32,000 nucleotides of DNA from an uncultured Opitutales bacterium (GTDB lineage Bacteria; Verrucomicrobiota; Verrucomicrobiia; Opitutales; Intestinicryptomonadaceae), in NCBI GenBank assembly GCA_934613415.1, contig CAKTSY010000004.1, positions 240,001 to 272,000 on the forward strand, in the 5' to 3' direction. Of the stretch, positions 4,552 to 21,380 are shown piece after piece. The translations under genes were made by a program, and so were the position numbers. The notes under the pieces are model-generated. The model was not told where the DNA came from. It did no database searches and worked only from the letters and a program-made list of their open reading frames with translations. Position 1 is the first letter of the stretch, and every line of letters starts with the position of its first letter.

Positions 4552-6747
4552 TTATTTTGCAGGCGCATTTTCGGGCTTTGCAGTGGCCGCCTTTGCTAAA
4601 GTCTCTTTTGCCTTGGCTTTGTCGGCATTTTCCTTTTCGGCTTTCGCCTTCATATAGGAGCTTTGCGGCAAAAACTTTGCATCTTTAAAGCAGCCAAAAT
4701 ACCATGCGCCGTAAAATATAGCCGTTATCAACGCCAAAATAACAACAAAATTTCTTACGCCGTGGTGCGGCGAATATGGGTCTAGCAAATCGCGCTTAGA
4801 GCCTTTGGGCAAAGAGGCTGTTTTTGTTAGCATACCGCCAAAAGCTATGTTTATTTTTGCCCTTGTGTTTACCGCCCAACCGTTGGCGTCTAGCAAAGGT
4901 CCAAGATTTCGCGTTCTAAGCTTTAGGGCCGCCAATACCATGGAAGGCAGCGATATTGCAAGAATTATGCCCGCAATGCCAAGCGGAATATACCAGCCCA
5001 AACCGAAGAAGGAATCCAGCAAAATGCCGAATGTTGCAGTTAACCCGCTAACGGCAACACCCAAGGCGGCAACCGTGCCTACGTCTATTTTCTTTTGCGG
5101 GGTTGCAACCGAAGTTTGCAGGTTTGCCTGAGCCTTTTCGTCGGCCTGACTTGCAAATTTTGCGATTTGTTCGGAAATCCATTTCGAGCATTTTTTGTAG
5201 GGCGACCAAAACGCCTGAGCGATGCTTATCGGGTTTTCTACCACCTTTACAACAACGGCGTCCCAATCGCGGCCGAGGTTGTCGTAAAATACGCCGTTGC
5301 GCCCCGCCATTAGGTTGTCGTTGTCGCCCGAAGTTACGGCGGCTACAATTGTCATAGGCGGCATACCCGCCCTTTTGCAGTCGCAGTAAAGCAGGTAGGT
5401 GTAGCTTAGCGCGCTCATTGCCGAATGGTTGCCTACGTTTTCGACCGCAATGCACAAGTCGCAAACTCTTTGATCTATATAAAGCCTGCCAACCTGAAAT
5501 GCCGACTTGTTTTTGCCCTCGTAAAACGACTTAAAGCTTACAAAATTTGTAAGCACATTAAGCAGATCGGCGTTAAGGCGAACAAGCTTTTCTACCGAAA
5601 ATATCGCGTCGTATTCCGCGCGCAACGTTTCGTCTTTTTCCACAATTTTTGCAAGCTTTTCGCGGTAATCCGATTTTGCAAATTTTGCGATAAATTCTTG
5701 CCCCAATTTGTCGGGCAAGTCGTTCGGCTTTGCCGAAATCCATTTTGCAAATGGCGCAAATTTTGCCGCTATTTTTGCAAAGTCGGCAGCACTAATTTCA
5801 GAAACTTCGCCGCCCAAGATTTTTGAAGCTACGTTTTTAAAATTGTCTACCTGAGGCTGCCATACGGGGTTTATCCCCTTTTCGAAATCGAAAAATTCGC
5901 TGTCGCCAATCAACGCAAGCGGCAGCTTTTTAAGTTGCGCATCGCGCGAATCTGCGTCTGCAAAAATTGCGGCAATTGTATCGTTTGTAGGGTTAAGGCT
6001 GTTTGCCGCAGAATTGTCGTAGCTAAGAACAGCCCTGCGGGTAAAATAGTCGTTCAGCTTTTCGGCAATAGCATTGTAGGCGGCATAGGCGGCTGCGGTA
6101 TCGTTGCCTAAAAACAGAATGGCGTTGTCGCTCTTTTCGTTTTCAAGCCAAGTTTGCGAAGCGTTCAAATCGTCAAAAAACGCGTTTATTTGGCCTAAGT
6201 CTATGCCGTCTTTGCCCGAACGGTCTTTCTTTGCGCCATATAAATCGGCTATTTTTTTGATTAAGTCGGCACAAACGGCGTCGTCTTCGGCAGATTCCGG
6301 AATGATTATGCCGTCGGCATTAAAAACAGTATTTTCGTATACCGAGTCTTTGTCGAAATCTTCGGGCAAAAGAGTGTTGTTCTTGCCGAAGTTTTTTGCC
6401 AAGTGCAAGGCGGCCGACTTAACAATTTTAGAATTTTCGTTGTCGTCGCAAATATTCGAGATTTCAAGTTCGCGGCTGCCGCTTAAAAGGCTGTCGGAAT
6501 TTTTCAGCATTTTGCAAGTCCACTCGCAGGCTTCTATCAATTCCTGCGCGCGTATTTTGCCGTCTTTGTCCAAATCTATAAAGGCAAGGGTTTTTTCGTC
6601 TAAATTCGTTCCCTTAACGGGGCAGCTTAACGCCGTCCACAATTTTAAATCTAGGTTGCGCAAATTTGCTATGTCGCTACCCGACTCGAATTTTACCTGA
6701 TAAACGCCGCCTGCCTTAAAAAAGCTCCAAATATGTTTTGTTTCCAT
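4552..6747 (-). CDS. Conserved-looking protein of unknown function: N-terminal EF-hand-containing domain, long soluble region, C-terminal multi-TM domain and a Lys/Ala-rich tail
   Basis: The 731-aa ORF has no signal peptide. It carries the canonical 12-residue EF-hand loop DLDKDGKIRAQE (aa 58-69). Hydrophobic segments lie after ~aa 560 (VAALGVAVSGLTATFGILL, WYIPLGIAGIILAISLPSMVLAAL, FVVILALITAIFYGAWYF). The tail is KAKAEKENADKAKAKETLAKAATAKPENAPAK. I cannot assign a family. Confidence 0.85.
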   Translation of the reverse strand: METKHIWSFFKAGGVYQVKFESGSDIANLRNLDLKLWTALSCPVKGTNLDEKTLAFIDLDKDGKIRAQELIEACEWTCKMLKNSDSLLSGSRELEISNICDDNENSKIVKSAALHLAKNFGKNNTLLPEDFDKDSVYENTVFNADGIIIPESAEDDAVCADLIKKIADLYGAKKDRSGKDGIDLGQINAFFDDLNASQTWLENEKSDNAILFLGNDTAAAYAAYNAIAEKLNDYFTRRAVLSYDNSAANSLNPTNDTIAAIFADADSRDAQLKKLPLALIGDSEFFDFEKGINPVWQPQVDNFKNVASKILGGEVSEISAADFAKIAAKFAPFAKWISAKPNDLPDKLGQEFIAKFAKSDYREKLAKIVEKDETLRAEYDAIFSVEKLVRLNADLLNVLTNFVSFKSFYEGKNKSAFQVGRLYIDQRVCDLCIAVENVGNHSAMSALSYTYLLYCDCKRAGMPPMTIVAAVTSGDNDNLMAGRNGVFYDNLGRDWDAVVVKVVENPISIAQAFWSPYKKCSKWISEQIAKFASQADEKAQANLQTSVATPQKKIDVGTVAALGVAVSGLTATFGILLDSFFGLGWYIPLGIAGIILAISLPSMVLAALKLRTRNLGPLLDANGWAVNTRAKINIAFGGMLTKTASLPKGSKRDLLDPYSPHHGVRNFVVILALITAIFYGAWYFGCFKDAKFLPQSSYMKAKAEKENADKAKAKETLAKAATAKPENAPAK

Positions 6748-10451: not shown

Positions 10452-12701
10452 CTACTTTATAACGGGTGTTTTAGACATTTTAAATACAAGTTTTTTGCCT
10501 GTTTTCAATGCGCTTATGGGCATTTTAAAATTTTCAAGCTTGCGGCCGTCTAGCCATACCGATTCAACATAGATATTCTCGGGGGCGTAATTTTCGCATT
10601 CTATCGTAAATGTATTGCCGCCGTATATATATTCGGGAAGCTTAAGCGTTATCTTTTTAAACAAGGGCGAACCCAAAATAAATTCGTCGCCTGCTGCAAA
10701 ATTTATGGGCGGGTACAAGCCCATTGCGCTCATTACATACCAACCCGAAATATTGCCGTAGTCGTCGTTATTGGGCAATGCTCCCGGCTCGTTGCGGTAC
10801 ATTGTATCCATAATAAAACGTACCATTTCTTGGGTTTTGTGCGGAACGCCAACTTCGGCATACAAATATGGAATAAACCTGTCGTTGCCGTTGCCGTGGG
10901 TATAGCAGCCTATCATACCGGAAACATCGCCTATGGCAGCCGTATACGGAGCTTTGAAGAATTCGTCCAGTCTTTTAACAAAGGCGTCTTTGCCGCCCAT
11001 CATTTTCACCAATTCGGGGATATCGTGCAGCACCATATACGAATACTGCCACGAATTGCCCTCGTTGTACGGGCTGCGCAATGTTGCCGTTGTGGGGTTA
11101 AAAGGTTCAACCCATTTGCCGTCGGCCGTTTTCGCGCGCAAAAAGCCTGTTTTCGGGTCGAACAGATTTTTGTAGTTTTTTGAATGTTTTAAGAGAAAAT
11201 CCGTTTCGCTTTGCGGCCTGTCGCCAAGCTCCTTTGCCAATTCGGCAAGGCAGTAAAATTCGTACGAATAACCGAGCGTTCTGTTCGAGCAGTCTTCGTT
11301 CATTTCGTACCTGCCGTTTTCGCGGTGTATATAGGGCAGATAACCGTACTTAATAAATTCGGCATAGCGTTCGTAATTCGGATCGCTTACAAGGCCGTAA
11401 TATTTGTTGTATATTGATTTTATATCTATTGTAGTTGCCCCCCTGCGGTAAAAGTTTAGGACTGCAGGAATGAACCCGTTTCCGAAAAACCCCCTGCGAA
11501 CATAGCCGCTTTTTACAATGTCGTCTATTTTATCGACAACCATTTTCGGCTCCATAAGGAACAGCACCTGATAGTTCATAGTATACAGCATTGCTATATC
11601 CTCTACCGATGCAAAATTTGAACAGCGCAAAACGGAAGTGTAGAACATTGTCCTTTGCGCCTGGGTGCCGCCCTCTACCTGAATTTTAGAGAAATATTTA
11701 TTCCATTCGTTTTCGCAGGTAACTTTTATGTCGTCAAAATTTTTGCCTTTTGTTTCGTCTTCCAATTTTTTGCGCGCGTCTTCTATACTTTTGTTCGATA
11801 CGGCAATTTTTACTTCGATTTGCTCGTTTTCATCTGTTGCGTAGTCTACAAACGCGCCCAATCCCTGTTTTTTTACATTGCCCTTGCTTTGAACTCGCCC
11901 AATGTAGGGATTAATTTTCATAATCCTTCGGTGATTTTGGTTGTTGTCTTTCCAAATTCCCCAATAGCGAAAGGGACGGCTGAATTTTGCGACAAAGTAT
12001 ATGTCGTTGCCGTAAAAATTGAATGAGGTTTTTAGTTTTTGGTAGCCTTCGATTTTATCGTTGCCCACTATTTCAAGCCAGGCTTCGGGAATGCTTGTAA
12101 ACTTGTGGGCAGCCCCCAAATCTATCAATATTTTAGACGAATGTGCTTTCGGGAAAGTATAGCGGTGAACGCCCACATGGTCGGTTGCGGTAATTTCAGC
12201 GCGAACGCCGTTCTTTAATTTTACCTTATAGTAATACGGTTTGGCAACTTCGCTTGCCGAATCTTTTTCGACACGATAGCCGCTTGCGCTGTTGGTGTCG
12301 TCTCCCGAAAAGGTATCAAGCTGGCCTACTACGGGCATAACTATGGGATTTGCATAGGCATTGTATTCAATGTTTAGCTGCGAAAACCCTATTATGTATT
12401 TGTCTCCATGCCTATAGCCCGAACCCCTTGAATGCGAAGCTACTCCCCTAAAGCTTGTAACCGGCGATGGCGAAACCATACCGCTAGGCATTCTTGGCCC
12501 GACAATTTCGTTTGCATACAACCCGTAGTCGGGGTCTAGCGAGTTGTTGCCGCTATATTCGGGACACGGGAAAATATCCGTTCCCAAAAGCAAGTTGGCT
12601 TCGTCTGCAAGCGGGGTTTGTTTTTGCTTTTTTTCGGCCGAAACGCAGCCGAGCATTGCCGAAAAAGCAATAGTTAATATTATATAAAAAACTCTTATCA
12701 T
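10452..12701 (-). CDS. Glycoside hydrolase family 92 (alpha-mannosidase-like) lipoprotein
   Basis: The C-terminal blocks NEGNSWQYSYMVLHD..LVKMMGGKDAFVKRLDEFF and YTHGNGNDRFIPYLYAEVGVPHKTQEMVRFIMDTMYRNEPGALPNNDDYGNISGWYVMSAMGLYP match GH92 signatures. I placed the start at the ATG at 12701 (MIRVFYIILTIAFSAMLGCVSAEKK, signal peptide plus lipobox-like MLGC). The upstream 77 codons of the track ORF are AT-rich junk. Confidence 0.85.
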   Translation of the reverse strand: MIRVFYIILTIAFSAMLGCVSAEKKQKQTPLADEANLLLGTDIFPCPEYSGNNSLDPDYGLYANEIVGPRMPSGMVSPSPVTSFRGVASHSRGSGYRHGDKYIIGFSQLNIEYNAYANPIVMPVVGQLDTFSGDDTNSASGYRVEKDSASEVAKPYYYKVKLKNGVRAEITATDHVGVHRYTFPKAHSSKILIDLGAAHKFTSIPEAWLEIVGNDKIEGYQKLKTSFNFYGNDIYFVAKFSRPFRYWGIWKDNNQNHRRIMKINPYIGRVQSKGNVKKQGLGAFVDYATDENEQIEVKIAVSNKSIEDARKKLEDETKGKNFDDIKVTCENEWNKYFSKIQVEGGTQAQRTMFYTSVLRCSNFASVEDIAMLYTMNYQVLFLMEPKMVVDKIDDIVKSGYVRRGFFGNGFIPAVLNFYRRGATTIDIKSIYNKYYGLVSDPNYERYAEFIKYGYLPYIHRENGRYEMNEDCSNRTLGYSYEFYCLAELAKELGDRPQSETDFLLKHSKNYKNLFDPKTGFLRAKTADGKWVEPFNPTTATLRSPYNEGNSWQYSYMVLHDIPELVKMMGGKDAFVKRLDEFFKAPYTAAIGDVSGMIGCYTHGNGNDRFIPYLYAEVGVPHKTQEMVRFIMDTMYRNEPGALPNNDDYGNISGWYVMSAMGLYPPINFAAGDEFILGSPLFKKITLKLPEYIYGGNTFTIECENYAPENIYVESVWLDGRKLENFKMPISALKTGKKLVFKMSKTPVIK

Positions 12702-12956
12702 ATATCCAATAATCTTTCTGTTTAAGGTTAGGTTTAACGATATATGAAAAAGAAAAAAAATACTCAAGCCCTTATTAAAAATTTGGCAAAAAACGCAATT
12801 ATTCAAAAAATAATTTCCGATAGAAATAAAGACCGCCAAAGGATAAAGATAAAACTTATATTGCATTTTGGCGGCCAGAAAAAAGTTTTCTGGCAATATA
12901 TTTACACCGCAAAAAATTTGCGCAGTGCACATTTAACCCGTGTTATTTACCATAAA

Positions 12957-13478
12957 ATGAGAATCTTTACCGCTATTTTGCTTATAATTTTATGCATATT
13001 CCTGTTCGATTGCACAACGCAGCCCCATGCGCCGCAACAAACCGTGCAGAACATAGATATAAAAAAATATATGGGGCTTTGGCACGAAGTTGCGCGCACA
13101 AAAAACCCGTTCGAAAGCGGCGTTGTAAATGCCCAAGCCAAATATTCGCTAAATACCGACAACACTGTAAGCGTGCTAAACACGGGCATACGCCAAAACG
13201 GCACAACAAAAAGCGCAAAAGGCAAAGCCTATGCGCCAAACCCGAAAGACTTTTCAAAGTTAAAAGTTACATTTTTTTGGCCCTTTTACGGCGACTATAA
13301 TATTTTGGCGGTAGGTAAAAACTATAGCTGGGCACTCGTAGCCAGCGATAAATATTTGTGGATACTTTCGAGAACCATTCCCATACCCCAAGGCGAACTA
13401 GCCAAAATTCTTCAAAAAGCCGCCTCGTTCGGCTACGCAACCGACAACCTAATCTACAACCTAAACACGGTAGAATAA
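12957..13478 (+). CDS. blc: Bacterial lipocalin (Blc-like)
   Basis: The protein reads MRIFTAILLIILCIFLFDC... then ..IDIKKYMGLWHEVAR..., ..YGDYNILAVGKNYSWALVAS.. and ..YLWILSRT.., which are typical Blc motifs. I moved the start to the ATG at 12957; the track ORF begins at 12744 in the AT-rich divergent intergenic region. Confidence 0.8.
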   Translation: MRIFTAILLIILCIFLFDCTTQPHAPQQTVQNIDIKKYMGLWHEVARTKNPFESGVVNAQAKYSLNTDNTVSVLNTGIRQNGTTKSAKGKAYAPNPKDFSKLKVTFFWPFYGDYNILAVGKNYSWALVASDKYLWILSRTIPIPQGELAKILQKAASFGYATDNLIYNLNTVE

Positions 13479-13534: not shown

Positions 13535-14317
13535 TCACGGCAAACTTACGGTTTTTTTTGTCAATCCAGAGAGTTTTTCTGCAATTATTTTTCCGTAATC
13601 TAAATCGGGCATATCCGCCTTAAAGTACGGCTTTTTCAAAGCGATAGCCTTTTCTATACCGAAGGGAACATATGGTTCTATATGAATCTCCGACACCGAC
13701 GAAAGCGAATTTGCCAAGTCTGCAATTTTTTGCAAACAAAACCCGCTGTCGTTTAAAGAAGGAATCATAGGGCACCGCAAGAAAATGCGAGTACCTGCAT
13801 ATTCGGCATTTTCCGCAATAGCCTTGTCTATAAAATTAAGATTATCAACAACTACATTTAACGGCTTGCCCGTATATTCAAAATGCTTTTTTTCGTCTAA
13901 AATTTTTATGTCAAAAAGCCATAAATCTACCAACGGCAAAAAGCGCGCAAGCACCGACTTTGCAGCATAACCGCTAGTTTCCACCGCCGTATGCACCCCG
14001 TGCGATTTTGCGCCTTCCAACAACTCAACAGCAAAATCGGGTGCAGCCAAAACCTCTCCACCCGAAAGCGTAAGCCCGCCAGCCGACTCATCGTAAAAAT
14101 CTTTGTCTTTTAAGACTTCGTTTAAAACCGCCTTAGTAGACATTACTTTGCCTATAGGCGTTCCGTCGGGATACTGCCCTATTCCGAAATCCTGACTTTC
14201 TGGAGAATGGCACCAAATGCAGCGCAATGGGCACCCCCTAAGGAACACAACAGTGCGTATTCCGGGGCCGTCGTGGGTTGAAAATTTGTCTATTTTTAAG
14301 ACAACCGCTTTTTGCAT
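13535..14317 (-). CDS. Glycyl-radical enzyme activating enzyme (radical SAM, PflA-like short form)
   Basis: The protein reads MQKAVVLKIDKFSTHDGPGIRTVVFLRGCPLRCIWCHSPES (CX3CX2C), then GGLTLSGGEVL, and aligns along PflA as I recall it. The start at the ATG at 14317 lies 5 nt after the GRE stop. The track ORF's extra 60 codons overlap the GRE 3' end. Confidence 0.85.
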   Translation of the reverse strand: MQKAVVLKIDKFSTHDGPGIRTVVFLRGCPLRCIWCHSPESQDFGIGQYPDGTPIGKVMSTKAVLNEVLKDKDFYDESAGGLTLSGGEVLAAPDFAVELLEGAKSHGVHTAVETSGYAAKSVLARFLPLVDLWLFDIKILDEKKHFEYTGKPLNVVVDNLNFIDKAIAENAEYAGTRIFLRCPMIPSLNDSGFCLQKIADLANSLSSVSEIHIEPYVPFGIEKAIALKKPYFKADMPDLDYGKIIAEKLSGLTKKTVSLP

Positions 14318-14322
14318 GGACT

Positions 14323-16686
14323 CTACACAAGCCTGTGTCGTTCTATAACCTCGTTTTGCCAACGTTCCGACAAAGCGACAAAACGCGCAGAAAAACCGCA
14401 TACTTTCACCATTAAATCCATGTGGCGTTCGGGGTGCTTTTGCGCGTCTATAAGGTCTTCTACAGAATTGCAGTTGGGCTGCAAAAGGTGCCCGCATTTC
14501 TTTGCAAAAACCCTAAATATGGCGGCAAAAGTCTCGGCACTCATAGCGTGCTTGTCGAAAGTAAGATTGGCGTTCGATGCAATCAGACATTCGTGAGGAA
14601 GCGTTGCGATAGAGTTCAAAACCGTTGTAATGCCCTCTTTGCAGCGGTATTCGCTGGGCGAAAATCCCTGCGCAAAGCGGTCGCCGTTGTACCTGCCGTC
14701 GGGAGTCGCCTTTGCACCGTTTCCCCAATACATAAACTCTCTATATATCAAAATCGCCAAGTGGTACGAATCGTTTTGGTCGGTCGTAAAACCCTCTATG
14801 TCGTCGTGAATTTTCCGCATCCACCACGCCATTTGCTCGCACGACTTTTTCGAACCGTCGCCCCAATACGGAGCCTTTAACACCTCTGCGCGCAAACGTT
14901 GTCCGTAGTCGCCCTCCCAGTTGTTGCGAACGGCATTCAGCAGCTCTTTTATAGTGCAAATTTTTTTGTCGAAACAAACGTATTCTATTGCCAACAGCGA
15001 ATCCACAACATTGCCCAAAAACGCCAAAGTGATTACGCGCGGGCGAGATGCTACACCGCCGTCGGTAGTATCGCGTCGGCTTTCTATTGCACCTTTTAGA
15101 CACATAGAATATACGGGATAAGGCGAAATCTTCGCAATTTGCCTTCCGTACCTAGTATATTGCCCCATCACACTCCTGAAAAACTTTATAAAATTCCTGT
15201 ATGCAATGCGCTGCGCATCGCCCGCGCTCTTTGCGTTTTGCAGGGGCTCAATTTCTATTTGCGCCTCTTTTTCTAAATTTTTATCCTGGTATATTGAAAG
15301 CTCCAAAGTTCTTACAACGGAAACATAGTTTGCGTCGTCTACGTCCATTACCGAATCTATGTAGCCATTCCAACAACCGCACGCAACATATTCCCTCGCG
15401 TCCTCGTCAGAAAAACCGCAATTTTTGTAATATGGAATATGGCGGTCGTCGTTAAACAGAGCAAACACGCAATGCCCCTTCATAAGCATATCTCCGATTT
15501 GCAGGAAATATTCTTGCGGCGAATTAGACGATATCCTGCAATGCAATTTTGGGAATACGCAATCTGCGGCATAGTGCATTTCTATAAACATTTTTGTTAG
15601 GTCGTTATACACTACGTTCCCGTATTTGTCGCACCCGCCCAATGTTATGGGAATTTCCATTTCGTGGTCGTCGTATCCGTCTACCTTGCGCATACCGTCG
15701 TGATGGCAATCGGCGGTAATCATAAATTTTGCAATCAATTCCTTTGCCTGGGCTGCAGTTAAACGCCCTTCGGCTATGTCGGCCTTGTACAGGCCATACA
15801 GCCAAGCATCGCAACGCCCCATTGCATACACAGAAACCCCGTCTATATAGCCGAGTATTTCGCGCATAAACCAAAGAGTGTTTAGCCCTTCGTAAAATGT
15901 TTTCGGCGGTTCCCACGGGCAACGCTTTGCGGATTGCGCAATCATCTTAAAGTTATTGCGCTGCCTTTCGGTTAAAGACAGGTCTTTTAAACGCCTTTCT
16001 GCTTCGTCTGCAAACGAAAGCTGTATCTTATGCAGAGTTTTCAATCCTTCAAGAGCCGTCTGCAACTCCTTTTTGCCCAATATATCGTCGCTTGGGCAGC
16101 TCTTTAACGCTGCTTGAACATCGGCATAAACACCGCCAAAACCCTTGCTTAAAATTGTTCTCGCAGGTGGAATGTGGTGAATTGAATCGACAAAAGGCCC
16201 GCAACAAAGCGTGAGGCGTTCTTTATTGCGCCTATTGAACACCTTAAAGGCCTCGTCGGGAATCAAGTTTTTTTCGCGGTAAAAACGCGAACAAAGATGC
16301 CAAGCCATTCTGGCTGGGCGCGCTCCCGCCCAGCCACCGTTTACGCCGGCTTCAAAATAAAACGGCGATTCGGTAAAAATAAACGGGACAAAGTGCGTAC
16401 GCATAGACTCGTACAATTTTTTGCGTATATCCAATGCATCATAATTGGGGTTGAGTTTTGTATACGCGATTATTTCGCTCTGAATTTTCTTTACGCTGTC
16501 TATTTGCCTAATGTCTTTTGCTTTACCGTGGCATTCGTCAGGATAAAAAGCGCGAAGCTGCTTGCGTAAAGCCGCATAGTCTTCGGAGCAATTTAAAGTT
16601 GAAGCCCCAAGCACGCCATTGCCGGCAAAAACCGTTGCAGTTGCTGCCATAGCCGTATTTTTTATAAAATTTCTCCTCGATATCAT
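14323..16686 (-). CDS. Glycyl radical enzyme (PFL-like fold, uncharacterised subtype) with an N-terminal twin-arginine signal peptide
   Basis: The 787-aa ORF has the C-terminal glycyl-radical motif MVKVCGFSARFVALSERWQNEVIERH (Gly764, 14395-14397). Its candidate thiyl loop is EYVACGCWNGY (Cys438, 15373-15375). The activase lies immediately downstream. An AAAGG Shine-Dalgarno-like element sits 9 nt upstream of the ATG at 16686. Confidence 0.85.
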   Translation of the reverse strand: MISRRNFIKNTAMAATATVFAGNGVLGASTLNCSEDYAALRKQLRAFYPDECHGKAKDIRQIDSVKKIQSEIIAYTKLNPNYDALDIRKKLYESMRTHFVPFIFTESPFYFEAGVNGGWAGARPARMAWHLCSRFYREKNLIPDEAFKVFNRRNKERLTLCCGPFVDSIHHIPPARTILSKGFGGVYADVQAALKSCPSDDILGKKELQTALEGLKTLHKIQLSFADEAERRLKDLSLTERQRNNFKMIAQSAKRCPWEPPKTFYEGLNTLWFMREILGYIDGVSVYAMGRCDAWLYGLYKADIAEGRLTAAQAKELIAKFMITADCHHDGMRKVDGYDDHEMEIPITLGGCDKYGNVVYNDLTKMFIEMHYAADCVFPKLHCRISSNSPQEYFLQIGDMLMKGHCVFALFNDDRHIPYYKNCGFSDEDAREYVACGCWNGYIDSVMDVDDANYVSVVRTLELSIYQDKNLEKEAQIEIEPLQNAKSAGDAQRIAYRNFIKFFRSVMGQYTRYGRQIAKISPYPVYSMCLKGAIESRRDTTDGGVASRPRVITLAFLGNVVDSLLAIEYVCFDKKICTIKELLNAVRNNWEGDYGQRLRAEVLKAPYWGDGSKKSCEQMAWWMRKIHDDIEGFTTDQNDSYHLAILIYREFMYWGNGAKATPDGRYNGDRFAQGFSPSEYRCKEGITTVLNSIATLPHECLIASNANLTFDKHAMSAETFAAIFRVFAKKCGHLLQPNCNSVEDLIDAQKHPERHMDLMVKVCGFSARFVALSERWQNEVIERHRLV
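16603..16686 (-). other. Predicted Tat (twin-arginine) signal peptide of the GRE
   Basis: The peptide is MISRRNFIKNTAMAATATVFAGNGVLGA|ST. SRRNFIK matches the S/T-R-R-x-F-L-K consensus. It is followed by a weakly hydrophobic Ala/Thr/Gly h-region and an LGA site. Confidence 0.65.
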
Positions 16687-16750
16687 ATAGTATAACCTTT
16701 AATTTAATTCATCGAGCAGAAATGTATTGTCGATTGGGTGAAATTGCAAC

Positions 16751-16783
16751 AAAAAAAGGGCTCGTTTACACGAGTCCTTTTTT
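16751..16783 (-). terminator. Rho-independent terminator downstream of tRNA-Thr and the RND operon
   Basis: The plus strand reads AAAAAAAGGGCTCG-tttaca-CGAGTCCTTTTTT. It is a 7-bp stem with one wobble and has A/T runs on both sides. Confidence 0.75.
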
Positions 16784-16788
16784 GACCG

Positions 16789-16861
<73 letters not shown>

Positions 16862-16888: not shown

Positions 16889-19800
16889 TTACTGATTTTG
16901 TTTTGCAAGCTTTTTTTGACTTAAAATTACATCTTTGCCGAAAATTCTGCGAATTATGTAATAAAACACGGGAGTCATTAGGCAGCCGCATATTGTTACA
17001 CCCAACATGCCGAACAAAACCGATGTTCCCAACGCCTGTCTTAGCTCAAAACCCGAGCCCGTGCCGTATGCCAAGGGAACAACGCCCAAGATAAAGGCGA
17101 AAGATGTCATCAAAATGGGGCGCAAACGGTTTTTGGAAGCATTGCTTACGGCGCTTACAATCTCCTCGCCCCTTGCCTCTCTTTGCTTTGCAAATTCGAC
17201 AATCAAAATCGCGTTTTTGCAGGCAAGGCCTATAAGCACAACAAAGCCTATTTGCGACATTATATTGTTGTCCATCTTGCGATAGTCTATACCGAGCACC
17301 GCAAACAACAGCACCAGCGGCACAATAAGTATAACCGAAAGCGGAATTGTCCAGCTCTCGTACAGTGCCGAAAGCAAAAGGAAAATAAACACAACGCACA
17401 CGCCGAAAATATACAGCGCGGTATTGCCCGCCTTGCGTTCCTGATAAACAAGGTCTGTCCATTCTATGCCCATGCCCACGGGTAAAATTTGGCGGGCAAG
17501 CTCCTCTATTTGGTTGGCAACATAACCCGTGCTATAACCCTTTTTAAGGTTGCCCTGAATGGGCGCGCTTGAATACAAGTTAAACCTTTCCACACGATCG
17601 GGCCCAATGCCGCGCCTTATTTTTACAAGCGAGCCAAACGGAACGCTTTTGCCGTTTTTGCTGGGCACTTTCAAGTTGTATATGTCGTTTATACTGCCCC
17701 TGTTTTCGGGCTGGCCTTGGGCTACAACCCTGTAAACGCGCCCTAAAATATTAAAGTCGTTAACGTATGCCGAGCCAAAATTATACTGCATTGCGGCGAA
17801 AATTTCTGATATGGGAACGTTTAGCTTTTGCGCCCTTTCGCGGTCTACCTCCATAAACAGCTGCGGATCGCTTACCCTATACGAAGTAAACACGCTGTCT
17901 ACGGAATCGAGCTTTTCTATTTCCCCTACCAAAAGGGTTGCGTAGTGGTTTAGCTGCATAACGCCAAGGCCTGCCCTGTCTTGCAACATAAATTTAAAGT
18001 CGCTGCCCGACCCTATGCCGGGAACGGGCGAAGGCGTTAAAATATTGCTCTTTGCCTCCGAAATATTTTCGTCGAGAACCTTTCTTGCCTCCTGCATAAT
18101 GTGCGCCATTGTGTAGCCGTGGGCGTCTCTATACGAGCGTTCCCTGAAATTTACAACCAATCTGCCGCACGAAGACGAAACCATACCCGTTGCCGCATTT
18201 TGCCCGGCGTTAGACTGTGCATACCTTATGCCCGCAATACGCATAACAAGGTCTCCCGCGCGTTTGGTAACCTCTTCGGTTGTGCTAAACGCCGTTCCGT
18301 TGGGCATATCAAGTCCTATGTTTATAAAGCCTCTGTCCTGCTTGGGTATAAAGCCCTTGGGTGTTGTTTCGAAAACGTGAACTGTTAGATACAACAAACC
18401 TATGTACAAAAGGAAAATTATAATCGAAATTCTTATTAAACCTGCAACCAAGCGGCCGTAGAACTTTGCGCAAAGTTCGAATACCTTGTTGAAAAGCCAG
18501 AATATTTTGCCGAATGTATTGTTGTATAACTTAAACAAAAATCCCTTTTTTGCATTGGGCTTTTCTTTAAGGAAAAGCGCGCAAAGCGCGGGAGTAAGCG
18601 TAAGCGAAACTATGCCCGAAAATATTGTAGAAGCTGCAATTGTTATTGCAAACTGCCTGTAAAACTGCCCGGAAATGCCGCCCAAAAACGCGGTGGGTAA
18701 AAACACGCAGCTTAGCACCAAAACAATTGCTATAAGCGCGCCCTGCACTTGCGTCATTGCCTTTTCGGTTGCGGCTTTTGCGTCCAGGCCGTCGGCCATA
18801 TTGCGCTCTACGTTTTCTACAACAACAATCGCGTCGTCTACAACAATGCCTATGGCAAGCACCAAACCGAATAGCGTAAGGTTGTTTATTGAATAGCCCA
18901 AAGCATACATAACCGCAAATGTGCCAACCAGCGAAACGGGAATTGCAAAAAGCGGAATAACGGCCGCCCTGAATTTTTGCAGGAACAACAGCACCACAAA
19001 AACAACCAAAATTACGGCGTCGAAAATTGTGCTGTAAACGGCGTTGATTGATTCTGAAATATATTCGGTTGTATCGAAGCCTATTATATAGTCGACATCG
19101 TTTGGGAAATCTTTTTTAAGCTCTTCCAGCTCTTTGCGAATGTTTTTAACGGTTTGCACCGCGTTAGACCCTGGCAACTGGTACGCCCCCATACCCACCG
19201 TACTTTTGTTGTTGATATACGAGTCGGTATTGTAGTTGTAGGAAGCCAGCTCTATTTTAGCTACGTCTTTTAGGCGAATAACCCTGCCGTCGGGCAGGTC
19301 TTTTACTATAATCGAGCCAAATTCCGATTCGGTAGAAAGCCTGCCCTTCATATTTATCAGCAGCTCAAGCGTTGCGTCCTCCTTGTGGGGCGACTGGTTT
19401 ATTTTGCCCGCGGCAACCTGTTTGTTTTGCTCTTCTATTGCCGAAATAATTTCCTTTGCGCCCATATTCAGGCTGGCAAGCCTGTCGGGGTCTATCCAAA
19501 TACGCATACAATATTCCTTTGCGCCCCAAACGTCGAACTCGCTAACGCCGTATACGCGCGAAAGCCTGTCTTGCATATTTGTAATTGCATAGTTTGTTAA
19601 ATACAGTTTGTCGCGCGTGCCCTTAGGCGAAATAAGGTTCACAGTCATCAACATATCGGGCGAGCGCTTTGCCACGGTTACGCCCTTGTCGCGCACCTCT
19701 TTCGGCAATCTGGAAAGCGACTGCGAAACTTTGTTTTGCACCAAAACCTGCGCCATGTCTATGTTGGTGCCCGTTTCGAAAGTAACGGTAATTCTAACCG

Positions 19801-20065
19801 AGCCGTTCGAAGCGCACTGGCTTTGCATGTAAATCATATTTTCTACGCCGTTTATTTCCTGCTCGAGAGGGGCGGCAACGGTGTTCATCAAAACTTCGGG
19901 CGACGCCCCAGCATAGTTTGCCGAAACCGAAATTGTGGGCGGCACAATGTTCGGATACTGCGTAATTGGCAAGTTTTGGAACGCAACGGCACCTACAAGC
20001 ATTATGAAGATTGAAATAACGCTTGCAAAAATTGGCCTGTTTATAAAGAAGTGCGAAAAATTCAT
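16889..20065 (-). CDS. RND family efflux transporter permease (HAE1/AcrB-like)
   Basis: The 1058-aa ORF begins MNFSHFFINRPIFASVISIFIMLVGAVAF..LPITQYPNIVPPTISVSANYAGASPEV, the canonical AcrB N-terminus. It has 12-TM architecture with two large periplasmic loops. Confidence 0.9.
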   Translation of the reverse strand: MNFSHFFINRPIFASVISIFIMLVGAVAFQNLPITQYPNIVPPTISVSANYAGASPEVLMNTVAAPLEQEINGVENMIYMQSQCASNGSVRITVTFETGTNIDMAQVLVQNKVSQSLSRLPKEVRDKGVTVAKRSPDMLMTVNLISPKGTRDKLYLTNYAITNMQDRLSRVYGVSEFDVWGAKEYCMRIWIDPDRLASLNMGAKEIISAIEEQNKQVAAGKINQSPHKEDATLELLINMKGRLSTESEFGSIIVKDLPDGRVIRLKDVAKIELASYNYNTDSYINNKSTVGMGAYQLPGSNAVQTVKNIRKELEELKKDFPNDVDYIIGFDTTEYISESINAVYSTIFDAVILVVFVVLLFLQKFRAAVIPLFAIPVSLVGTFAVMYALGYSINNLTLFGLVLAIGIVVDDAIVVVENVERNMADGLDAKAATEKAMTQVQGALIAIVLVLSCVFLPTAFLGGISGQFYRQFAITIAASTIFSGIVSLTLTPALCALFLKEKPNAKKGFLFKLYNNTFGKIFWLFNKVFELCAKFYGRLVAGLIRISIIIFLLYIGLLYLTVHVFETTPKGFIPKQDRGFINIGLDMPNGTAFSTTEEVTKRAGDLVMRIAGIRYAQSNAGQNAATGMVSSSCGRLVVNFRERSYRDAHGYTMAHIMQEARKVLDENISEAKSNILTPSPVPGIGSGSDFKFMLQDRAGLGVMQLNHYATLLVGEIEKLDSVDSVFTSYRVSDPQLFMEVDRERAQKLNVPISEIFAAMQYNFGSAYVNDFNILGRVYRVVAQGQPENRGSINDIYNLKVPSKNGKSVPFGSLVKIRRGIGPDRVERFNLYSSAPIQGNLKKGYSTGYVANQIEELARQILPVGMGIEWTDLVYQERKAGNTALYIFGVCVVFIFLLLSALYESWTIPLSVILIVPLVLLFAVLGIDYRKMDNNIMSQIGFVVLIGLACKNAILIVEFAKQREARGEEIVSAVSNASKNRLRPILMTSFAFILGVVPLAYGTGSGFELRQALGTSVLFGMLGVTICGCLMTPVFYYIIRRIFGKDVILSQKKLAKQNQ

Positions 20066-21195
20066 TATTTAAGCTCCACCTTTACGGGTTTTACAACCGA
20101 ATTTAACTTTGCGCGGTGAAGTGCTTTTACAACAACCCAATCGCTGTCTTTTAAGCCGTCTAAAATTATTATGTTTTTGCCTATGTTTTCGCCAACAGTT
20201 ACCGCTCGGTATTCAACAACGTTCTTGTCGTTCACAACCAAAACATAGCGACCAACTAAGTCGGTGCCTACAATTTGTTCGGGTAGCATAAGGCGGTCTA
20301 CACCCTCGCTGCGGCGCAAACTTGCCTTTGCATACATACCGGGGAAAAGCTTGCCCTTAGAATTGTCCACATCGGCCCTAAGCTCCATACTTGCCGAATT
20401 TAGCTTGTTGTCGATATACGTTAACACACCGGTGTGCGACGCGGTTTTTTCGTCCATAAGCTTTATCTTTACGGGCGGGCCGCTGCGGGTGTCGCCGTTG
20501 ATTTTATCTATAAGGTTTTCGTTTGAATAGTTTATTATATCGCGTTCGCTAACTTCGAAATACGCATATATTGTAGCTCTCGAAACCACGTTTGCCATAA
20601 GGGTACTCGAAGCTTCAATAAGGTTGCCTGCGTCTACCATACGGCGGCTTACATAGCCCGAAATTGGAGAGGTGATTTTAGTAAATTCAAGATTAAGGTT
20701 TGCCTCTTTTAACTGGGCTTTTGCGCTCATTAACAATGCGTTTGTAGTAAGGTATTCGCTGCGGCGGGTTTCCAAAGTTTCTTTCGAAATTGCCTTGGCG
20801 GCAAACAGTTCTTCGGCGCGGCTTAGGTTGCTTTTTGCCAAGCTTACCTTCGATTCTGCCTCTATAACCGATGCCTTGCAGTTTTCTACTACAACCTCGA
20901 AAGGCCTTGGATCTATAAGGAAAAGCGGCTGGCCCTCCTTTACATATTGGCCGTCGAAAAACAAAATCTTTTCGAGATAGCCGCTAACGCGCGAGCGTAT
21001 TTCAACCGACTTTTCGCCCTCTAGTCTTGCAACGTAGTCGTCCCAAATTTCTACCTTGCGCTTTATGGGGTTTGCAACCTCTACCGAATTGTTCTGTGCA
21101 GTCGTTTTGGCTGCGGGTTGTTCGTCTTTGCAGGATACCGCAAAAAATGCGCACAATGCAAATAATGCAAATGTATATAAATTTGTTTTAGCCAT
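20065..21195 (-). CDS. RND efflux periplasmic adaptor (membrane fusion protein), lipoprotein
   Basis: The protein begins MAKTNLYTFALFALCAFFAVSCKDE (lipobox AVSC). It has barrel-sandwich and coiled-coil blocks (..VEIRSRVSGYLEKILFFDGQYVKEGQPLFLIDPRPF.., ..TKITSPISGYVSRR..). Its stop overlaps the pump's ATG by 1 nt (TAATG). I chose the start at the ATG at 21195. Confidence 0.85.
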   Translation of the reverse strand: MAKTNLYTFALFALCAFFAVSCKDEQPAAKTTAQNNSVEVANPIKRKVEIWDDYVARLEGEKSVEIRSRVSGYLEKILFFDGQYVKEGQPLFLIDPRPFEVVVENCKASVIEAESKVSLAKSNLSRAEELFAAKAISKETLETRRSEYLTTNALLMSAKAQLKEANLNLEFTKITSPISGYVSRRMVDAGNLIEASSTLMANVVSRATIYAYFEVSERDIINYSNENLIDKINGDTRSGPPVKIKLMDEKTASHTGVLTYIDNKLNSASMELRADVDNSKGKLFPGMYAKASLRRSEGVDRLMLPEQIVGTDLVGRYVLVVNDKNVVEYRAVTVGENIGKNIIILDGLKDSDWVVVKALHRAKLNSVVKPVKVELK

Positions 21196-21380
21196 ATATA
21201 GAAGATAAAGTTTTTTAAGGCTTAAAAAAGAGAACTGCACCGCAATTTGCCGCAAAACCCGACAACACAGCGTTTAACAAAGCCCTCCCCCGCAAGCCGT
21301 TAAAGTTTTAAAGATTTACAATTATATAAAAGGGGCTGCTTTTCAAGAATTTTTACATAAAAATTTGCATATTTTTGGGC

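Follow-up and report, generated by a model that had tools for sequence, protein, structure and literature searches.

A glycyl radical enzyme with a predicted twin-arginine export signal, encoded beside a leaderless activase in an uncultured Opitutales bacterium

Glycyl radical enzymes (GREs), like the radical-SAM enzymes that activate them, are cytoplasmic by all textbook accounts, and activation requires SAM and a very low-potential electron donor. The GRE 1,2-eliminases are the best sequence matches (phmmer, about 140-172 bits) of a GRE encoded in a 32,000-nucleotide stretch of DNA from an uncultured Opitutales bacterium, hereafter the window. GDH (1R8W), PD dehydratase (5I2G), CutC (5A0U) and HypD (6VXC) share with the window GRE the same full-length ten-stranded barrel (Foldseek, TM 0.76-0.81), and the eliminases have in common with it a C-terminal Gly radical domain, the position of the Cys loop and an adjacent, dedicated radical-SAM activase. 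They are only about 20% identical to it, however, and have a GCxE loop where the window GRE has GCWNG; unlike them, the window GRE has a Cys directly before its radical Gly (VCGF). All of them are cytoplasmic, some inside microcompartments, whereas the window GRE carries a Tat-type leader. Among the top structural matches were also the PflD and YbiW 1,5-anhydro-hexitol-6-phosphate dehydratases (8ID0, 8ID7, 8YJO), which are GREs that act on sugar derivatives; in contrast to the window GRE they use phosphorylated cytoplasmic substrates and have no signal peptide, and the identity is about 19%.

Described export systems offer other likenesses. DmsAB and the small and large subunits of NiFe-hydrogenase are assembled or modified in the cytoplasm and exported folded, with an S/T-R-R-x-F-L-K signal that may serve two proteins at once: DmsB travels with DmsA, and the hydrogenase large subunit with the small subunit. 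Their cargoes carry metal cofactors, whereas the "cofactor" of the window GRE would be a post-translational protein radical. In the case of anSME/AtsB, a cytoplasmic radical-SAM enzyme modifies a periplasm-bound protein before export, as we propose below for the window pair, but the product is a stable formylglycine in a sulfatase exported via Sec, whereas that of the window pair would be an oxygen-labile radical. A full-text literature search found no report of exported or Tat-tagged GREs or of activases with a Tat signal, and we know of no precedent for a Tat leader on a radical-SAM enzyme.

The two window genes are arranged as the original prediction had described them (Table 1). The GRE gene runs on the minus strand from an ATG at 16686-16684 to a stop codon at 14325-14323, and the activase ATG at 14317 follows after a spacer of 5 nt; the AAAGG element that had been cited in support of the GRE start does lie exactly 9 nt upstream of the ATG, at 16700-16696. 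A hairpin and T-run, called by consensus match only, sets the pair apart from an RND pump and a tRNA upstream. GH92 is among the glycan-degrading (CAZyme) genes near the window GRE.

Table 1. Features of the GRE-activase gene pair (window coordinates)
Feature	Coordinates	Strand	Basis
GRE precursor, 787 aa, family F1	14323..16686	-	ORF; Pfam PFL-like and Gly_radical; AF2/Foldseek
Leaderless GRE-activating radical SAM enzyme, 260 aa, without ferredoxin-like insert	13535..14317	-	TIGR02494; Pfam Radical_SAM and Fer4_12
Predicted signal peptide of Tat type, residues 1-28, with putative cleavage by signal peptidase I after VLGA28	16603..16686	-	TIGR01409, orthologues, pLDDT
Twin-arginine motif S3-R-R-N-F-I-K9	16660..16680	-	Sequence reading; [ST]RRxF[ILV] in P0001-P0007
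AAAGG Shine-Dalgarno-like element, 9 nt before ATG of GRE	16696..16700	-	Sequence
Cys loop G437-C438-W-N440-G; C438 putative thiyl radical residue	15364..15378	-	phmmer alignment to CutC GCVEP
Glycyl radical motif K761-V-C-G764-F-S-A-R-F769	14380..14406	-	Aligned to CutC RVAGYSAYF
Activase CX3CX2C radical-SAM cluster motif C29-PLR-C33-IW-C36	14210..14233	-	Sequence; invariant in alignment A3
Terminator-like hairpin and T-run after tRNA-Thr	16761..16774	-	Consensus match only

The window protein is a glycyl radical enzyme. It had been called full-length, and both Pfam models matched its 787 residues: PFL-like (PF02901) at 169-648 (E 2.4e-75) and Gly_radical (PF01228) at 671-770 (E 3.3e-18), with residues 34-170 outside the coverage of the models. 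An AlphaFold2 model (pLDDT 87.6, pTM 0.88) superimposed in Foldseek on GDH, PD dehydratase, PflD, CutC and HypD with a TM of about 0.8. The radical motif KVCGFSARF noted earlier near the C-terminus occupies residues 761-769 and aligns in phmmer with RVAGYSAYF of CutC, just as GC438W aligns with GCV. G437, C438, W439 and the radical Gly are invariant in our alignment A1, and of 179 family members, with leaders of every type, 175 retain the radical Gly motif and about 173 a Cys loop of the form xGCW[ND][GPA]. The barrel with its Gly domain, the radical Gly with its thiyl Cys, and a cognate activase, three sequence and structural marks of the superfamily, are all present.

Neither of two described subclasses fits the GRE. 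We rejected the 1,2-eliminases (GDH, PD dehydratase, CutC, HypD, IslA) on the loop difference given above and on a TIGR01774 score of 232 bits against a cut-off of 678. Pyruvate formate-lyase proper was rejected as well, the window sequence reading C436-G-C438 instead of an adjacent CC and scoring 48 bits with TIGR01255 against a cut-off of 994. With every NCBIfam equivalog or subfamily model the window GRE fell far below the cut-off. Asn440 occupies the place of the general-base Glu of the GCxE eliminases, and at this point in the loop Asp or Glu is found in relatives further removed.

Residues 1-28 of the GRE are MISRRNFIKNTAMAATATVFAGNGVLGA, followed by ST. The SRRNFIK leader that the original prediction had placed in this segment was recovered at the N-terminus by NCBIfam TIGR01409 (TAT_signal_seq), which matched residues 2-24 at 18.2 bits, above its curated cut-off of 16.7. 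After the motif come 19 uncharged residues and then LGA/S, which supply an h-region and a small-x-small c-region. The form [ST]RRxF[ILV] was present in all seven closest cluster representatives (P0001-P0007, 63-99% identity), in which the remainder of the leader diverges and the h-region drifts in sequence and stays uncharged; all six members of the window clade have RR. In the AlphaFold2 model residues 1-4 and 12-32 have a pLDDT below 50, and the folded enzyme begins at about residue 34. Screening the other window ORFs of 150 aa or more with a rule of our own gave no further N-terminus with RR plus an h-region at a real start. From the above-cut-off match and the retention of RRxF in the seven closest clusters despite drift of the h-region, we judge on comparative grounds that the predicted leader is real and under selection. 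A lipoprotein signal was considered and rejected for the window GRE, which has no lipobox (Cys33 is preceded by TLN), as was a microcompartment targeting peptide: such peptides are short amphipathic helices, whereas these leaders have the three parts and the putative cleavage site of a signal peptide, and the neighbourhood contains no shell genes.

TIGR01409 scored the leader of P0014 above the cut-off (17.7 bits) and that of P0002 just below it (16.1), and matched neither P0005 nor P0011 nor any of the five leadered activases tried (three RR, two RK). Because this model is too short and insensitive, leaders were classed by our own rules, which ask for RR, RK or KR and then for a run of 12 or more uncharged residues, which take hydropathy into account, and which are home-made and distinct from SignalP and TatP.

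The clade to which the window GRE belongs is large, with members in Kiritimatiellia of the gut and rumen and in other bacteria of the PVC group. Of the 120 clusters closest to the window GRE, about 111 have an N-terminal signal (26 RR, 28 RK or KR, 57 Sec-like), and about 2 at most lack a leader altogether. Over 10 residues the leaders reach a peak hydropathy of 1.95 in the RR class, 2.18 in the RK class and 2.51 in the Sec-like class, the order to be expected on passing from Tat to Sec signals. A good number of relatives have RK in place of RR, which in E. coli makes a weaker Tat motif. Among the paralogues there are also classical Sec signals and possible lipoprotein-type leaders, and one paralogue, P0050, was found on several independent contigs as a fusion of a Sec signal, a GH16 domain with an intact EIDVLE motif, and a GRE. 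In other crown-group paralogues (L022, L027, L028, L031, L046, L048) the leader has been lost secondarily.

The GREs of a basal branch of Lentisphaeria, Victivallales and Oligosphaera have no leader, and 111 of 113 full-length 50%-cluster representatives of more distant relatives are leaderless; the representative search added no characterised members among these. With the same classifier, leaders were found in 0 of 35 GREs of other families and in none of roughly 60 ordinary activases. By these comparisons, the signal trait is derived and specific.

The window activase begins MQKAVVLKIDKF. It was said to have no signal peptide, and this is upheld by its orthologues, in which no upstream extension into a leader is possible; leaderless activases are likewise found in the orthologous pairs L002, L004, L005, L023, L032 and L033. 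The protein scored 221.8 bits with the GRE-activase model TIGR02494 (cut-off 174.35) and 148 bits with TIGR02493 (PFLA; 232), and it is therefore not PFL-AE proper. The core features of an activase are present. As in PFL-AE, it lacks the ferredoxin-like auxiliary-cluster insert that is usual in most non-PFL activases.

Elsewhere in the family it is the activase that bears a Tat-type leader. Leaders of the form T[RK][RK]xF[IL] ending in A-x-A were present on 117 of the 120 clusters nearest the activase of locus L011, and these T-type activases have a ferredoxin-like insert with four Cys. L060 encodes an activase that resembles the window one in type (47% identity) but has gained an RR leader in front. 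Within F1, strict RR was found in 8 of 8 GREs that accompany a leaderless activase versus 1 of 7 that accompany a leadered one (Fisher p = 0.0014); apart from that one, the GREs beside leadered activases are RK, Sec-like or GH16-fused, and none within F1 is leaderless. Tat-tagged activases adjoin Sec-type GREs in L060, in L085 (a GRE of a second family, F2) and in L081 (a GRE of a third family). At L074 a leaderless F2 GRE lies 3.5 kb from a Tat-leader activase, so the pairing rule is not absolute outside F1.

A search of the window, of roughly 10 kb of additional flanking contig and of the window-clade loci examined gave neither tatA nor tatC. Among all loci examined, tatA-tatC was seen in the UMGS1035 lineage only, where L067, L068 and L011 encode on one strand an FAD-oxidoreductase with a Tat leader, a membrane protein, the GRE, a Tat-activase, an OmpA-like protein, tatA and tatC. 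The membrane protein is polytopic, 389 aa long and confined to the UMGS1035 lineage, its gene running into the start of the GRE gene in L067, and the FAD oxidoreductase is common only to this lineage and Oligosphaera, in which it is leaderless. No conserved gene for periplasmic SAM or electron supply recurs beside the Tat-activases.

Secreted proteins are frequent among the neighbours. In the window-clade locus L003 a protein with a Tat leader (GH109) follows the GRE, and downstream of many paralogues, on the same strand and often within 20-130 bp, are secreted CxxCH haem-c proteins. Large secreted proteins with an HZS_alpha domain lie near F1 GREs at 15 loci; the domain was confirmed in all three that we checked, and two of these also had either CxxCH motifs for haem c or a weak match to cytochrome c. 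CAZyme-rich clusters surround many loci other than the window (GH78, GH71-like, GH109, CE15, DUF4838, GH106, GH39). The enzymes are diverse and share no single theme, and given the abundance of CAZymes in these genomes, adjacency is weak evidence for a substrate.

Taking these data together, we think it rather probable that the two window genes work as a pair and that the GRE is a true cargo of the Tat system, which would receive its radical in the cytoplasm, cross the membrane already folded and act on substrates derived from glycans. The precursor would fold in the cytoplasm, where the co-translated leaderless activase, with SAM and a cytoplasmic low-potential reductant, would place the radical on Gly764 before export. 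The Tat translocase would then move the folded, radical-bearing enzyme out, and signal peptidase would remove residues 1-28 at the predicted site. The mature GRE, of about 86 kDa, would work through a thiyl radical on Cys438 in the anoxic periplasm of a gut anaerobe, and its substrate would probably be a sugar or glycan fragment freed by neighbouring secreted glycosidases. We know of no case in which a Gly radical survives Tat transport or a GRE dimer of about 170 kDa is exported.

Two other readings, each of which we consider unlikely, differ from this one in what crosses the membrane. In one of them the leaderless activase remains attached to the GRE and passes the membrane by virtue of its partner's Tat signal, so that a [4Fe-4S] activase able to re-activate quenched enzyme would be present in the periplasm as well. 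The close spacing of the genes would probably yield the two proteins in 1:1 amounts, the activases of sister systems have export leaders of their own, as though a periplasmic activase were wanted, and the arrangement at L074 fits a reverse piggy-back. Against this, GRE-activase complexes are transient in characterised systems, and re-activation outside would still call for SAM together with an electron donor at about -450 mV.

In the other reading nothing is exported: the leader is a remnant, a NarG-like chaperone or membrane-tethering peptide, or an uncleaved anchor, and the enzyme is cytoplasmic, as is every characterised GRE known to us (the literature search gave no counter-example). The lack of tat genes near the window locus fits such a view, and the repeated loss of the leader in crown-group paralogues means that localisation is clearly labile. 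A NarG-type remnant, though, lacks a proper h- and c-region, whereas the full n-h-c architecture and the small-x-small site are conserved here in orthologues, and even an uncleaved peptide would, from its positive-inside topology, put the bulk of the protein outside. Moreover, paralogues have exchanged the leader for plain Sec signals, possible lipoprotein-type leaders or a secreted GH16 domain, sister-system activases have Tat leaders of their own, one operon adjoins tatA-tatC, and secreted haem-c proteins lie downstream of many paralogues. Between real export and a vestigial leader of the NarG kind, these comparisons favour export.

It is very unlikely that the GRE fold is exported for use as a binding or non-radical catalytic module. 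Such reuse would explain the Sec-type paralogues, which cross the membrane unfolded and so could not be activated beforehand, and the eliminase general-base Glu is indeed Asn here; yet the radical Gly and thiyl Cys motifs are nearly universal in the family, a dedicated activase is co-encoded almost everywhere, and Tat-tagged activases stand beside the Sec-type GREs of L060, L085 and L081. Translation from the in-frame Met13 or later, which would leave the RR peptide unmade, is scarcely credible given the AAAGG element before Met1 and the conservation of RRxF in the protein sequences of orthologues that are 63-70% identical and whose leaders differ in other respects, and a Met13 start would still leave a hydrophobic, signal-like N-terminus.

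Returning to cytoplasmic activation followed by Tat export, we extend this reading to the wider family with more reserve than conviction. Kiritimatiellia and related PVC bacteria may possess a complete glycyl-radical system outside the cytoplasm, in which at least three GRE families are exported by Tat or Sec, some of them fused to GH domains, and a Tat-exported [4Fe-4S] radical-SAM activase equips them with the radical once they are in the periplasm. Acting directly on complex glycans by radical C-O or C-C chemistry, such enzymes would be a new, oxygen-sensitive class of carbohydrate-active enzyme, of which the window gene would encode the variant activated before export. Activation in the periplasm would demand either that SAM and a donor of low potential be available there or that the activase be a "single-shot" enzyme, reduced and preloaded with SAM when it is exported.

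The comparative rule, that a cytoplasmic activase goes with strict RR on the GRE and that with an exported activase the GRE may use Sec, can guide experiments. If the whole clade is exported, either a protein radical passes the Tat pore or radical-SAM chemistry runs in the periplasm, and both would, to our knowledge, be unprecedented. The glycan-degrading clusters in abundant rumen and human-gut Kiritimatiellia, together with the GH16 fusion, suggest an unrecognised anaerobic radical route against recalcitrant polysaccharides, which would be relevant to fibre and mucin turnover, rumen function and enzyme discovery. The export signals on the window GRE and hundreds of its relatives suggest that radical chemistry extends beyond the cytoplasm, where it probably acts on complex sugars.

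The 787-aa product is a full-length GRE, as the original prediction held, with both a PFL-like and a glycine-radical domain in Pfam. In phmmer alignments to PDB sequences (CutC, PFL2, glycerol dehydratase and similar enzymes, about 140-172 bits), Gly764 of its glycyl-radical motif KVCGFSARF aligns with the radical glycine of known GREs, and Cys438 with the thiyl cysteine. The predicted twin-arginine (RR) leader was also borne out: the protein begins MISRRNFIKNTAMAATATVFAGNGVLGA|ST, and the NCBIfam model TAT_signal_seq matches residues 2-24 at 18.2 bits, above the curated cut-off of 16.7. A scan of the 32-kb window for RR ahead of a hydrophobic, charge-free stretch found no second such leader at any genuine ORF start. 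The adjoining gene encodes the leaderless activase that had been noted there (TIGR02494, a GRE-activase model, 221.8 bits vs 174.35; CX3CX2C motif). Each factual point of the original prediction was confirmed. The GRE ATG lies 74 nt past a terminator-like hairpin, itself behind tRNA-Thr; because the hairpin and its T-run part the RND efflux genes from the GRE-activase pair, the pair probably has its own promoter in the 74-nt gap.

Coordinates of features in the window and at compared loci (L-numbers)
Feature	Position	Strand	Remarks
GRE ORF	14323-16686	minus	787 aa
PFL-like domain of window GRE	residues 169-648		Pfam
Glycine-radical domain of window GRE	residues 671-770		Pfam
GRE start ATG	16686-16684	minus	AAAGG exactly 9 nt upstream
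Window activase	13535-14317	minus	260 aa; start 5 nt past GRE stop
tRNA-Thr(TGT), then hairpin and T-run	16761-16861
RND efflux genes	16889-21255
GH92 α-mannosidase-family gene and lipocalin-like gene	10452-13478	GH92 on GRE strand, lipocalin-like gene opposite	GH92 downstream of GRE
731-aa ORF	4552-6747		no Pfam match
F2 GREs	L076:7719-10004, L074:14379-16688, L009:7689-9980		also L085, L080
Third GRE type	L081:5725-7998
GH16-GRE natural fusion (P0050)	L069:6021-9137		also L043, L070, L071
389-aa membrane protein	L067:8835-10004		no Pfam match
PF12831-type FAD oxidoreductases	L050:6252-9986, L067:7403-8827		Oligosphaera; UMGS1035 lineage
Large secreted proteins	L008:12282-15578	same as GRE	also L018, L019, L039, L054, L066, L013, L060

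The fold and catalytic apparatus of the window GRE belong to the known superfamily. Its confident AlphaFold2 model (39 homologues; pLDDT 87.6, pTM 0.88) is mostly unstructured over residues 1-32, with the fold beginning at about residue 34, and Foldseek places it on GRE 1,2-eliminases and PflD (TM about 0.8, roughly 20% identity). The enzyme is nevertheless outside every characterised GRE subfamily, and all NCBIfam subfamily and equivalog models score far under cut-off. Whereas GCxE enzymes carry a general-base Glu in the Cys loop, the window GRE has Asn (loop GCWNG); Cys763 directly precedes the radical Gly. Invariant cysteines are unusually many (C51/H52, C132, C162, C197, C256, C352, C529, C571, C739 and C763), and the set takes in a PDECH motif located at the N-terminus of the mature protein. 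In an exported protein, such residues might build a metal site or pair as disulfides.

In a search of 5.8 billion proteins, at least 120 clusters share 55-99% identity with the window GRE (family F1). No cluster is annotated specifically: names are mostly missing, and where there is one it is either generic (pyruvate formate-lyase family) or just states the source (Kiritimatiellae, 'Candidatus Colisoma'). Their N-termini all precede a conserved mature start, …YAALRKQLRAFYPDECHG. By our own classifier, the 120 nearest clusters comprise 26 RR, 28 RK/KR and 57 Sec-like leaders; the other nine are mostly truncated gene calls, with about two truly leaderless. Peak 10-residue hydropathy climbs from RR (1.95) through RK (2.18) to Sec-like leaders (2.51), the known Tat-versus-Sec trend. 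An xGCW[ND][GPA] loop is present in about 173 of 179 family sequences, irrespective of leader type. In one cluster, P0050, a Sec signal leads into a GH16 domain, whose EIDVLE catalytic motif is intact, and the F1 GRE comes after it; this layout was recovered on several independent contigs. An RK-leader activase follows the fusion, and genes around it encode a BNR/sortilin-like protein and a Tat-lipoprotein.

Two kinds of activase adjoin F1 GREs. The window type is without a Cys-rich insert, has a C-terminal …KPVRLP tail and is leaderless in L001, L002, L004, L005, L023, L025, L032 and L033; at L060 a 47%-identical orthologue of this type has an appended RR leader, MNITRRAFAGAAAAFAAAGHGMAEG, and the GRE signal is Sec-type. 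The T type carries a four-Cys, ferredoxin-like insert and is never without a leader; among the 120 clusters closest to the L011 activase, 117 open with a Tat-like T[RK][RK]xF[IL]…AFAVSPML-A-x-A peptide. A regular expression divided these into 66 RK, 30 RR, 10 'KR' and 11 'other', although, read by eye, the 10 'KR' and most of the 'other' sequences also contain RR. A Tat leader on an FeS protein is what would be expected of a truly periplasmic radical-SAM enzyme.

Within F1, an RR leader on the GRE is associated with the leader state of the activase (Fisher p = 0.0014). GREs beside a leaderless activase are RR in all eight loci. Those beside a leadered activase are RK (L009, L010, L011), Sec-like (L060) or fused to GH16 (L043, L052), with RR only at L015, and no leaderless GRE adjoins a leadered activase within the F1 loci. 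If the activase is confined to the cytoplasm, the GRE would have to be folded and activated before transport, and Tat would be needed; if the activase is exported, the GRE would be free to cross unfolded via Sec. The pairing seen in these sequences is the pattern expected under this scheme.

For the window pair, the most likely reading, which we hold with some confidence, is that the GRE is activated in the cytoplasm and then translocated by Tat with its radical in place, its leader presumably being cleaved after Ala28. Activating the Sec-type paralogues would take SAM and a reductant in the periplasm, or else an activase that arrives there pre-loaded. It is unlikely that the leaderless activase hitchhikes across with the GRE; we give no better chance to a GRE leader that does not drive export. 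Export of a non-radical GRE protein is very improbable; 175 of 179 family sequences keep the radical Gly motif, whatever their leader. A start-codon artefact is the least credible alternative: the AAAGG element was found where it had been predicted, and [ST]RRxF[ILV] is kept in 7/7 clusters closest to the window while the remaining leader diverges.

On metagenome contigs, the commonest neighbor of Tat-leader activases is a second GRE family, F2, which is 24% identical to the window GRE (loop GC[FY]E, motif RV[AC]GWN[IV]RW). F2 leaders are Sec-like (L085, L009), RK (L080), odd and uncharged (L076, L086) or absent (L074). At L009 the order is Sec-tagged F2 GRE, RK-leader F1 GRE and RR-leader activase. 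L074 is an exception, its F2 GRE lying without a leader 3.5 kb from the Tat-activase; either hitchhiking or a partner GRE at another locus could account for this. A third GRE type at L081 (27% identity) bears a Sec signal of classical form (MRLLAALPFLLTVLIAQSAYA) and adjoins an RK-leader activase.

A scan of one genome per species gave 66 loci with an F1 GRE. Nearly all lie in MAGs whose labels read Kiritimatiellia, Lentisphaeria, Victivallales, 'Opitutales' or Verrucomicrobia; the sources are human gut, rumen and comparable anoxic settings, and a single genome often carries several paralogues. Oligosphaera ethanolica is the sole cultured carrier, and L001, a Hadza-gut MAG contig, is 99% identical to the window. 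Midpoint rooting of an NJ tree gives a basal branch (Lentisphaeria, Victivallales, Oligosphaera) that is leaderless throughout. Most members of the crown group, largely Kiritimatiellia-labelled MAGs, have leaders, with several Tat/Sec/none switches, and the window clade (L001, L002, L003, L004, L005, L023) is RR in all. An exhaustive search across 1.84 billion cluster representatives brought in wider relatives (25-45% identity). These have the N-terminal ELRxFY motif in common with the window GRE; their Gly motif, where one was detected, is of the RVCGFSAKF type, and their loop is mostly GCW[DE]. Of the 113 full-length representatives among them, 111 lack a leader. The same classifier found leaders in 0/35 control GREs of other families and in none of roughly 60 ordinary activases from unrelated metagenome loci. 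Together, the leaderless basal branch, wider relatives and controls indicate from sequence that the export signal of F1 GREs is a derived, lineage-specific gain.

At L067, L068 and L011, genes for a Tat-leader FAD oxidoreductase, a polytopic membrane protein, the GRE, the Tat-activase, an OmpA-like protein, tatA and tatC lie on one strand. Neither tat gene turned up in the window, in about 10 kb of added flank or in the compared loci of the window clade. The Trp-rich membrane protein of L067, whose stop overlaps the GRE start in this tatAC-linked operon, is limited to that lineage; that it supplies SAM or electrons is pure speculation. The FAD oxidoreductase and GRE, encoded side by side in both lineages, are both leaderless in Oligosphaera and both have Tat-type leaders in the UMGS1035 lineage, and may have moved to the periplasm as one module. 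A family of large secreted proteins is encoded near the F1 GRE, on its strand, at 15 genome loci, in several beginning 20-130 bp past the GRE stop. All three checked (L008, L018, L060) contain HZS_alpha, the hydrazine-synthase-alpha middle domain (PF18582); CxxCH haem-c motifs were seen in that of L008, and one other has a weak cytochrome c match. An AXE1 esterase or F5/8-C domain is an additional feature of some members. Attachment of haem c takes place only outside the cytoplasm. These proteins could be GRE partners or electron donors.

CAZymes near the GRE include GH92 in the window and elsewhere GH78, GH71-like with LamG, and GH109 with a Tat-lipoprotein leader; CE15 glucuronyl esterase, DUF4838, GH106 and GH39 also occur. 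Because CAZymes are very numerous in these genomes, adjacency is suggestive only, and the GH16 fusion is a stronger pointer to glycan chemistry. The longest ORF of the window GH92 gene (826 aa) overlaps a lipocalin-like gene on the opposite strand; public gene calls use a 749-aa start. The 731-aa ORF, with a hydrophobic Lys/Ala-rich C-terminal tail, is conserved in the sister contig L001.

Full-text literature searches uncovered no account of GRE export or of a GRE activase bearing a Tat tag, and a 2024 review on FeS enzymes of the gut brings up the periplasm for molybdoenzymes only. An exported GRE, as these sequences suggest, would be striking because it would break the assumed confinement of glycyl-radical and radical-SAM chemistry to the cytoplasm.
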